Position numbers and translations under genes: made by a program. Below the pieces are notes generated by a model, which was not told the origin of the DNA, did not search any database, and saw only the letters and a program-made list of their open reading frames with translations. Positions 28,938 to 29,974 of a DNA stretch of 41,704 nt are shown in pieces. Numbering within the stretch: the stretch's first letter is position 1; each line of letters opens with the position of its first letter. Source of the stretch: Coriobacteriales bacterium (lineage in GTDB: Bacteria; Actinomycetota; Coriobacteriia; Coriobacteriales; UBA8131); contig JAISGJ010000063.1 of the NCBI GenBank assembly GCA_031263105.1, positions 1 to 41,704 of the forward strand, in the 5' to 3' direction.

Positions 28938-29543
28938 ATGAGAACCTACGGCTACGTCCGCGTGTCGAGCGCGGATCAGAACGCGGACAGGCAGCTCGCC
29001 GCCATGAGGGAGGCCGGCGTGCCGCTCGCGCGGGTGTTCACCGACAGGCAGAGCGGCAGGGACTTCGAGAGGGAGGCCTACAAGTCCCTCGTGCGGAGGC
29101 TGAGGGCGGGAGACCTGCTCTACGTCCACAGCATCGACCGCCTCGGCAGGGACTACGGCGAGGTGCAGGAGCAGTGGCGGCTCCTCACCAAGGAGCGCGG
29201 GGTGGACGTCGCCGTGCTCGACATGCCGCTTTTAGATACGCGCAAAGACAAGGATCTGATGGGCACCTTCATCGCCGACCTCGTGCTCCAGGTGCTCTCG
29301 TTCGTCGCCCACAGCGAGCGCGAGTCCATCCGCAAGCGGCAGGCCGAGGGCATCGCCGCCGCCCGTGCCCGCGGCGTCCGCTTCGGCCGTCCCGCCACAA
29401 GGCCCCCCGAGGGCTTCGGCGCCTTGGTGCGCGAATGGGAGCGCGGCGAGCTGCCGATCTCCGAGCTGCTTGCGCGCTCGGGCCTGAAGGAGGCCACGTT
29501 CTACAGGCGTCTGCGGGAGCTGCGTATGGCGAGAAGGCGATGA
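28938..29543 (+). CDS. Small serine recombinase (resolvase/invertase family) with C-terminal HTH
   Basis: YGYVRVSS..Q...Q, SG...R, GD.L.V.SIDRLGR, ER..IR.RQ.EGI..A..RG..FGRP, ATFYRR; alternative in-frame ATG at 28902. Confidence 0.93.
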
Positions 29544-29545
29544 TG

Positions 29546-29721
29546 CGCTATCAAAAGGTCTACCTTTTGATAGCGTACCGATGGTACCACAAAATCGGCG
29601 AACGCAAGCGCATTCGGCGCGAAAACTGCCCGATTGAGGCAGATCGGAGCAGAAAAGCAGGACTGTGTCCCGAATAACTGACGCAGAACACCCCTGTCAA
29701 AAGGTAGACATATTGAGAGTG
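29546..29721. mobile_element. Candidate invertible DNA segment bounded by inverted recombinase sites
   Basis: Left site CGCTATCAAAAGGT-CT-ACCTTTTGATAGCG (29546-29575). Right site CCCTGTCAAAAGGT-AG-ACATATTGAGAGTG (29692-29721) matches the reverse complement at 24/30. Confidence 0.7.
29581..29591 (-). promoter_or_regulatory. Extended -10 promoter inside the invertible segment, currently pointing away from the island
   Basis: Minus strand TGTGG-TACCAT (TRTGn-TAnnnT), the same class as other promoters in this window. Confidence 0.55.
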
Positions 29722-29746
29722 GGCTAAGAGAAAAGAGGGATGAACT

Positions 29747-29974
29747 ATGAAATACGAATATAAAGTGATTACACCGCAACAATTCAATAAACATGAAGAT
29801 ATTGAGATGATGCATCTAGGCTGGGGTCCAGTAGAAGAAATCGAGAAAGCAATAAATAAACTAGCGAATGAGGGATGGGAATATCTAAATCCGATAGTGT
29901 TCCCATATACAACGGATGGTAAGTGGCTAGCGCATACAAGAGTCCACCTAGTATTCAGGCGAGAAAAATCGTAA
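29747..29974 (+). CDS. DUF4177-like small protein
   Basis: YEYKVI...IEKAINKLANEGWEY...LVFRR pattern; GAGGGA RBS. Confidence 0.75.
   Translation: MKYEYKVITPQQFNKHEDIEMMHLGWGPVEEIEKAINKLANEGWEYLNPIVFPYTTDGKWLAHTRVHLVFRREKS

Follow-up and report, generated by a model that had tools for sequence, protein, structure and literature searches.

Promoters inverted by serine recombinases, such as those switched by Hin and Mpi, are textbook cases, and the principle is already known. In the Hin-hix system of Salmonella, as with Gin, Cin, and Pin, a small serine recombinase acts on inverted, two-armed sites around a 2-bp core, and a promoter reading out of the end of the segment turns the operon beyond it on or off. 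The Hin segment of about 1 kb contains the hin gene itself and needs a 60-bp, Fis-bound enhancer. Resolvases such as Sin, Tn552 Bin3, and gamma-delta bring about deletions, using res sites that are direct repeats and include accessory subsites. In E. coli, the orientation of the fimS segment feeds back on the expression of fimE. One account of Hin indicates that matching cores are needed, and that a core mismatch blocks ligation in the inverted state (PMC4817059). In Bacteroides fragilis, the serine recombinase Mpi (Ssr2) is described as acting in trans on several loci, where it flips short promoter segments (PMC10403206, PMC5903667). A large inverton group of Clostridia has been tied to tyrosine recombinases in a report whose available text never mentions serine (PMC11892184).

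Here, we analyzed a 41,704-nucleotide stretch of DNA (the window), contig C25 of a 2.9-Mb draft genome of a Coriobacteriales bacterium (250 contigs; 86% complete). Our data indicated that the locus is probably a phase-variation cassette in which a serine recombinase would flip a promoter segment governing a foreign, low-GC gene island. It resembles Hin-hix in its enzyme class, in the architecture of its sites, and in its outward promoter; unlike in Hin, the gene lies outside the segment, and the segments of the family measure just 126-178 bp, too short to accommodate an enhancer, of which there is also no sign. With fimS it shares a short promoter-bearing segment beside a recombinase gene and a predicted OFF-biased population, whereas FimB and FimE are tyrosine recombinases with other chemistry and sites. 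Sin, Tn552 Bin3, and gamma-delta resolvases provide the closest solved structures and have the same catalytic residues, but the gene is followed here by two simple inverted sites, and some relatives are in the flipped state.

What is new is a large family that is apparently uncharacterized in print, together with its rules: the stop codon abuts the first site, segments of 126-178 bp span whole helical turns and carry phased A/T tracts, six core types are interchangeable, and one promoter reads outward. A wider proposition, which we hold only tentatively, is that this is a widespread, self-contained, enhancer-free, and undescribed cassette combining a Sin-like recombinase, a curved mini-loop of 12-17 whole turns, freely evolvable cores, a promoter parked facing its own recombinase gene, and ever-changing foreign cargo possibly placed by outer-site recombination, with a multi-locus regulon in this termite-gut genome. 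No published description of the cassette family was found in the searchable literature (supplementary tables lay outside the search), and an earlier listing of such loci in inverton catalogues is possible.

A resolvase-like recombinase gene abuts a pair of inverted sites

The recombinase gene (28938..29543, plus strand; ATG at 28938, TGA stop at 29541-29543) encodes a small serine recombinase of 201 aa, presumed to be an invertase. Residues 4-147 matched the Pfam family Resolvase (PF00239; E 3.2e-28, 99.1 bits, cutoff 23.3). The residues R8 and S10 and the motif DRLGRD (SIDRLGRD in this protein) lined up with gamma-delta resolvase, position 2 to position 2, and with Sin. The C-terminus gave a subthreshold HTH_20 match (residues 161-196, 17.1 bits, cutoff 27), and the gamma-delta alignment extended to residue 194. 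The closest solved structures were 2r0q (E 1.9e-27) and 1zr2 (E 3e-22), and the bit scores were 99.5 for Sin/Tn552 Bin3, 82.5 for gamma-delta resolvase, and 58.5-59.3 for Gin structures. The first-pass annotation had called the enzyme Hin/Gin-type, a label that suits the mechanism but not the sequence, which is nearer to the Sin/Tn552 resolvases.

Three family assignments were rejected. Enhancer-dependent invertases are not the nearest sequence kin, Gin scoring below both Sin and gamma-delta resolvase, and membership in the Mpi family was dismissed with only 32.6 bits for NCBIfam NF009949 against a cutoff of 272. A Sin/Tn552-type resolvase acting on a res site was likewise discarded: the sites are inverted and lie 3' of the gene, the context is chromosomal, with rnpB and pcrA on one side and toxin-antitoxin genes on the other, and none of the window ORFs adjoining the switch is a transposase. 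Homologues on plasmids reached up to 53% identity (52-53%) and carried no annotation beyond "recombinase family protein"; a Mu-type transposase adjoins one of them. The Sin-like scores and the plasmid kin together suggest that the invertase arose within a resolvase-like branch common on Firmicutes plasmids.

The left site, CGCTATCAAAAGGT-CT-ACCTTTTGATAGCG (29546..29575), begins 2 nt past the recombinase stop and is a perfect 14-2-14 palindrome with its core CT at 29560-29561. The right site, CCCTGTCAAAAGGT-AG-ACATATTGAGAGTG (29692..29721), lies 146 bp further on, start to start, and its core AG (29706-29707) is the reverse complement of the left core. The invertible segment between the cores (29562..29705) measures 144 bp, and the site centers are 146 bp apart, or about 14 helical turns. 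The half-site may resemble hix. A 22-nt site pattern with up to three mismatches gave one match in the window, compared with 0.00 in 100 shuffles, and chance occurrence of the pattern is excluded; a search with a 20-nt pattern returned no further full site in the window. The first-pass annotation had placed the gene, both sites, their 146-bp offset and 24/30 match, and the first ORF 25 nt beyond them exactly, and the perfect palindrome and the inverted CT/AG cores that it described were confirmed on the sequence.

The arms of the right site have diverged from the left site, with 12/14 matching positions in the inner arm, 10/14 in the outer arm, and 24/30 overall, and the outer arm carries two mismatches in its 9-nt half-site. 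Such divergence would suit a fossil or locked switch, in which the right site has decayed, the promoter is fixed toward the recombinase, and the island is silent or otherwise driven. A solitary site elsewhere in the genome (C163:19070-19099, without a partner and not beside a recombinase gene) indicates that decay does occur. Nevertheless, we regard a locked switch as unlikely, given that the recombinase ORF is uninterrupted and encodes the catalytic residues, the left site is perfect, the two cores are still exactly complementary, and the outer halves in many relatives have diverged equally.

Four site pairs and two recombinase genes in one genome

The 20-nt pattern with up to three mismatches occurred at just nine places genome-wide (2.9 Mb). 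Eight of these form four pairs with spacings of 135 (C120), 146 (C25, the window), 172 (C179), and 320 bp (C213), all with reverse-complementary cores; the ninth is the lone C163 site. The three further pairs (C213:10492-10841, C120:25301-25465, and C179:12041-12242) have GT/AC cores, and none lies beside a recombinase gene. A second recombinase gene of the same type, with 69% identity, is carried on C179 with no switch adjoining it. With four site pairs for two recombinase genes, and three switches lacking an adjacent gene, the enzyme probably also acts in trans, as does Mpi. Unlike Mpi, it belongs to a different sequence family, and each of five isolate genomes of relatives has a single pair, beside the recombinase gene, suggesting that the four pairs in this genome represent an expansion and that the usual form is a cis cassette.

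The surroundings of the additional sites were varied. The C179 pair abuts a minus-strand operon encoding a 287-aa membrane protein and a HerA-like ATPase. The C213 pair sits between a DUF4417 gene and a gene for a small secreted protein, a paralogue of which adjoins the lone C163 site. The inner segment of the C213 pair is a paralogue of the window segment split by an insertion of about 175 bp, which accounts for the 320-bp spacing. This insertion (C213:about 10590-10770, locus L007) has terminal inverted repeats and resembles a miniature transposable element; words similar to it were seen upstream of the C179 recombinase gene and near 28285-28330 in the window.

The cassette recurs in gut-associated Clostridia and other relatives

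We compared 160 loci holding recombinase homologues of 58-75% identity, taken from scans of species-representative genomes (best 80 of 405 confirmed) and metagenome contigs (best 80 of 486 confirmed). These loci came from Oscillospiraceae, Lachnospiraceae, other Clostridia, and Synergistaceae, and from termite, ruminant, rabbit, chicken, and human gut. Sequence of 400 bp or more was available past the recombinase gene at 130 loci; at 94 of these, a site pair began no further than 350 bp from the gene end, and 36 had no pair with the pattern used. The stop codon in the 62 relatives in the ground state (defined below) mostly falls 0-9 nt before the left site, and at most loci, a co-oriented ORF starts about 10-100 nt past the right site.

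In the family to which the organism belongs, 34 genomes, all incomplete, were compared, and 5 carried a recombinase homologue at E ≤1e-40. The closest, with 79% identity and from another genus, has perfect AA/TT sites 146 bp apart and the same -10 position as the window. Homology of the window to this relative is limited to 28923-29617, and the flanking genes differ on both sides. In this relative (L011; G020:C91, about 1440-1500, minus strand), the recombinase frame has no stop before the site; the open frame (228 aa) runs through the site into the segment, so that inversion would alter the tail of the protein. No relative closer than 75% among the metagenome matches listed, or than 79% among genomes, was found, and the collections thus hold no flipped copy of this very locus.

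Complementary cores and flipped relatives point to inversion

For the core test, we collected non-redundant neighboring sites with up to four mismatches each and 80-450 bp apart, without requiring complementarity of the cores. Reverse-complementary cores were present in 88 of the 89 pairs, extending the CT/AG arrangement of the window to the family, and the sole exception involves a weak site match inside a gene. Six core types were represented (AC/GT, 67; AG/CT, 8; AA/TT, 7; AT, 3; CC/GG, 2; GC, 1). Complementary cores are the pattern expected of inversion because the 2-nt overhangs left by staggered cuts must pair after the exchange. The palindromic cores AT/AT (three pairs) and GC/GC (one pair), for example in L051, L093, L123, and L044, leave orientation undefined; deletion as well as inversion would be expected at these loci, unless the geometry of the loop by itself restricts them to inversion.

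Inner similarity was detectable in 21 locus pairs, and in six of these (L034/L131, L131/L134, L060/L061, L061/L150, L087/L176, and L108/L162) the inner part lay on the opposite strand between co-linear flanks. The cleanest was L034, from a cultured isolate of Fusibacillus kribbianus, against L131, a metagenome contig: the flanks were 100% and 99.7% identical on the same strand, and the inner 138 bp was 100% identical on the opposite strand. Flipping L034 in silico at the core left 1 mismatch in 788 positions against L131, compared with 107 unflipped, and a polymorphism in the half-sites places the crossover between offsets -7 and +5 relative to the core. At the family level, this pair answers the proposal of the first-pass annotation to look for related genomes with the segment flipped.

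The state of the sites also went along with the direction of the promoter. We called a locus "ground" when each site was palindromic beyond the recognized half-site and "flipped" when the inner halves were swapped. The 94 non-redundant loci comprised 63 ground, including the window, 12 flipped, and 19 tied. When the better sigma-70-type promoter of the two ends was taken, 45 ground and 2 flipped loci had it facing the recombinase, and 2 ground and 6 flipped loci had it facing away, with 39 of the 94 unclear or tied; the association (Fisher 2.5e-5) is overstated, as kin are not independent, and all counts across relatives are phylogenetically non-independent in this sense.

These data bear on a reading without any recombination, in which the palindrome forms a hairpin at the end of a transcript, or is bound by a transposon or plasmid resolvase in an autoregulatory or accessory role, and its second copy is coincidental. 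The left-site hairpin is stable in the RNA of either strand (-21.9 and -27.2 kcal/mol), and the closest solved and plasmid-borne kin, at 99.5 bits for Sin/Tn552 Bin3 and up to 53% identity for the plasmid proteins, are resolvases. Against this stand the near-universal complementarity of the cores and the flipped relatives, which contradict it at the family level. Moreover, the U-tract expected after such a hairpin is absent in the window, where the A-run and the T-rich tail are both missing, and the two loci with homologues of about 53% identity (a Tn552-like staphylococcal plasmid region and a phage-labelled contig), only two controls, have no such site pair. We consider this reading extremely unlikely.

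A predicted promoter parked toward the recombinase gene

The minus strand at 29591-29581 reads TGTGGTACCAT and includes an extended -10 element, TGGTACCAT (29581..29589, minus), which reads leftward, out through the left site. A -35-like hexamer, TTGCGT (29602..29607, minus), lies 15 nt upstream of the -10, at the position where relatives have TTGCAT or TTGCAA; the -35 is weak, and the 15-nt spacer is short against the 17 nt usual in relatives. Across the family, an outward-reading TGnTAnnnT or TATAAT element recurs at a constant distance from one of the sites. The promoter score in the window was 8 leftward versus 4 rightward. The predicted promoter faces the recombinase gene, so the cargo would be OFF in the assembled state, as in most relatives. 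The first-pass annotation had read the same minus-strand -10 as pointing into the recombinase gene and had taken the assembled state to be OFF; both points held up, through the outward promoter shared by the family, the scores, and the ground state of the window.

In the proposed mechanism, recombinase dimers would bind the two near-palindromic sites and pair them across a short, pre-bent loop of 14 turns. Both sites would then be cut at the central dinucleotide (CT/AG) and rejoined after exchange, reversing the 144-bp segment. In the assembled state, a sigma-70-type promoter beside the left site would fire toward the 3' end of the recombinase gene, leaving the cargo OFF. After inversion, the promoter would lie beside the right site, start near 29693, and transcribe the DUF4177 gene (ON), and the ON transcript would probably cover more of the low-GC island. 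As the first-pass annotation proposed, the parked promoter could also produce antisense RNA against the recombinase. Since it faces the recombinase gene, we propose by analogy that the arrangement may permit feedback like that of fimS.

A generic promoter scan did not list the minus-strand promoter and gave instead a plus-strand candidate, TTGATA-17-CAAAAT (29567-29595, 9/12), which would face the cargo in the present orientation. This promoter-like match could provide the separate drive of the island under a locked switch; we regard it as a putative, minor alternative to the parked promoter.

One public run (X1, termite gut) carries this DNA, as assembled contigs, and runs X2 and X3 of the same study gave just fragments from other organisms. 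One X1 contig, with a depth of 20.9, has the reference orientation from 29581 across the right site, and the X1 contigs are interrupted at the left palindrome. None of the X1 contigs was flipped, which fits a locked switch but does not count against flipping. Because the locus is represented only by assembled contigs in the reference orientation, we infer the flipping of this copy; we likewise infer that the adjacent enzyme performs it, that the promoter is active, and how far transcription extends. The window shows, on its sequence, the arrangement by which invertons are recognized (inverted repeats around a promoter, with a co-oriented gene next), and the occurrence of both orientations in nature is documented in relatives, this locus being represented in the reference orientation alone, in contigs from one run. 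The reading of the first-pass annotation as a promoter switch is strengthened by structural elements that recur in homologous loci, a support that comes from relatives and not from reads of this organism.

In AT-rich relatives (L017-L176; left site ±30 nt) in the ground state, the left site is arranged as an A-run, the palindrome, and a T-rich tail, and the A-run coincides with a Lys-rich end of the recombinase gene. The left site of these relatives could serve as a two-way intrinsic terminator that ends the recombinase mRNA and stops leftward transcripts of the parked promoter, antisense RNA included. Inversion would disrupt this arrangement.

Segments span whole helical turns and carry phased A/T tracts

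The center-to-center spacings of 100 non-redundant pairs fell into clusters at 126, 135-138, 146-148, 155-159, 165-169, and 176-179 bp, with peaks near 126/136/147/157/168/178 bp. For the 98 spacings between 100 and 200 bp, a period of 10.4-10.5 bp gave a Rayleigh vector length R of 0.72, compared with a maximum of 0.33 among 2,000 random sets with all periods scanned. The phase near zero indicates that the spacings are whole helical turns, and the 146 bp of the window correspond to 14 turns.

Periodicity of AA/TT at 10.5 bp was also pronounced in the inner segments of the family, with a mean power of 0.856 compared with 0.266 ± 0.028 for dinucleotide shuffles (maximum, 0.337 of 100) and with 0.215 and 0.118 for equal-length controls from the downstream region and the recombinase gene, respectively. 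The inner 126 bp of the window, though GC-rich, gave 1.10 versus 0.28, a value reached by 0 of 500 dinucleotide shuffles. Its retention of the 14-turn spacing and the A/T phasing argues against a locked switch. The phased A/T tracts would make the loop intrinsically curved and join the two sites on the same helical face; alternatively, phased A-tracts upstream of the promoter could serve transcription or promoter activation instead of looping.

The position profiles of the segments revealed no conserved second element (enhancer). The rules of the family raise the question of how an enzyme resembling resolvases can invert selectively over such a short loop when no enhancer is known. Compact, non-cross-reacting switches of this kind would be useful genetic parts.

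A foreign cargo island lies beyond the right site

The GC content of the window is about 66-75% up to 29 kb and 42-52% between 30 and 36 kb, and the step from about 0.68 to about 0.43 coincides with the right recombination site. The first cargo gene (29747..29974, plus strand; ATG at 29747, 25 nt past the right site) encodes a 75-aa DUF4177 protein (Pfam PF13783; E 2.3e-7, 31.4 bits, cutoff 25). The rest of the low-GC island (30213..36219, plus strand; 42-52% GC) holds nine further co-oriented ORFs, most of them encoding small membrane proteins and the others including proteins of 608, 161, and 303 aa. The 608-aa protein had two homologues, at 38-39% identity, among 5.8 billion proteins, and none was found in the 33 other genomes of the family (incomplete; single query). 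Apart from DUF4177, Pfam gave only a subthreshold Bflower_2 match on the island; PADLOC returned a single weak match of the cargo, PDC-S47 (E 5e-4), to the 161-aa protein, and an Atlas search gave weak beta-propeller leads, all below the 0.9 mark. Scans of the island for terminators and promoters showed no excess over shuffles, and a hairpin at 30098-30141 has no T-run. A cassette of the kind that we favor would mark this near-orphan, foreign island as a trait expressed in part of the population.

The coincidence of the GC drop with the right site also suits gene capture or exchange, in which the recombinase joins incoming, site-bearing DNA to the resident outer site and swaps the cargo, inversion being secondary. 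The limits of homology to the 79% relative, where the cargo differs, are in keeping with this, as is the heterogeneity of the first sizeable downstream protein across 51 relatives, which included AMP-binding enzymes (6), leucine-rich-repeat proteins (4), and protein kinases (3), as well as TIR, SPFH, cohesin, S-layer, and GGDEF proteins. In one pair of Lachnoclostridium MAGs (L080/L094), the left flanks are 98.7% and the inner segments 95% identical, and the sequences are unrelated just past the outer half-site; this divergence within a few bases suggests replacement of cargo at the site. The break, however, lies at the outer edge of the site and not demonstrably at the core, it comes from the one clean pair examined, and no circular or excised form was seen. 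As inversion is directly documented in the family (L034/L131; 6 of 21 pairs), we consider capture as the primary function very unlikely and retain the phase-variation cassette as our preferred reading.

The remaining neighborhood of the switch combines housekeeping and addiction genes. On the 5' side of the recombinase gene are genes for DAHP synthase and a PcrA-type helicase, both housekeeping, and the RNase P RNA gene rnpB (28382-28779, minus). Rfam at gathering scores reported only rnpB and a tRNA in the window, with no RNA element within the switch. Past the island, the minus strand at 36491-39113 contains a PIN-domain-like toxin ORF, named by eye from its translation (the NCBIfam scan gave no family), with a small upstream partner ORF, and then an AbiEi antitoxin (NCBIfam 192.8 bits; cutoff 150) with a 298-aa ORF immediately upstream. 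The toxin ORF and the AbiEi antitoxin beyond the island place the switch and its cargo in a defense or addiction-module neighborhood. On the other side, a 28-nt direct repeat, 93% identical, occurs at 28219-28246 and 28368-28395, with 149 bp between the two positions; one copy reaches into the 3' end of rnpB, the other lies just past the pcrA stop, and the repeat may be the scar of a former element integrated at the end of rnpB.
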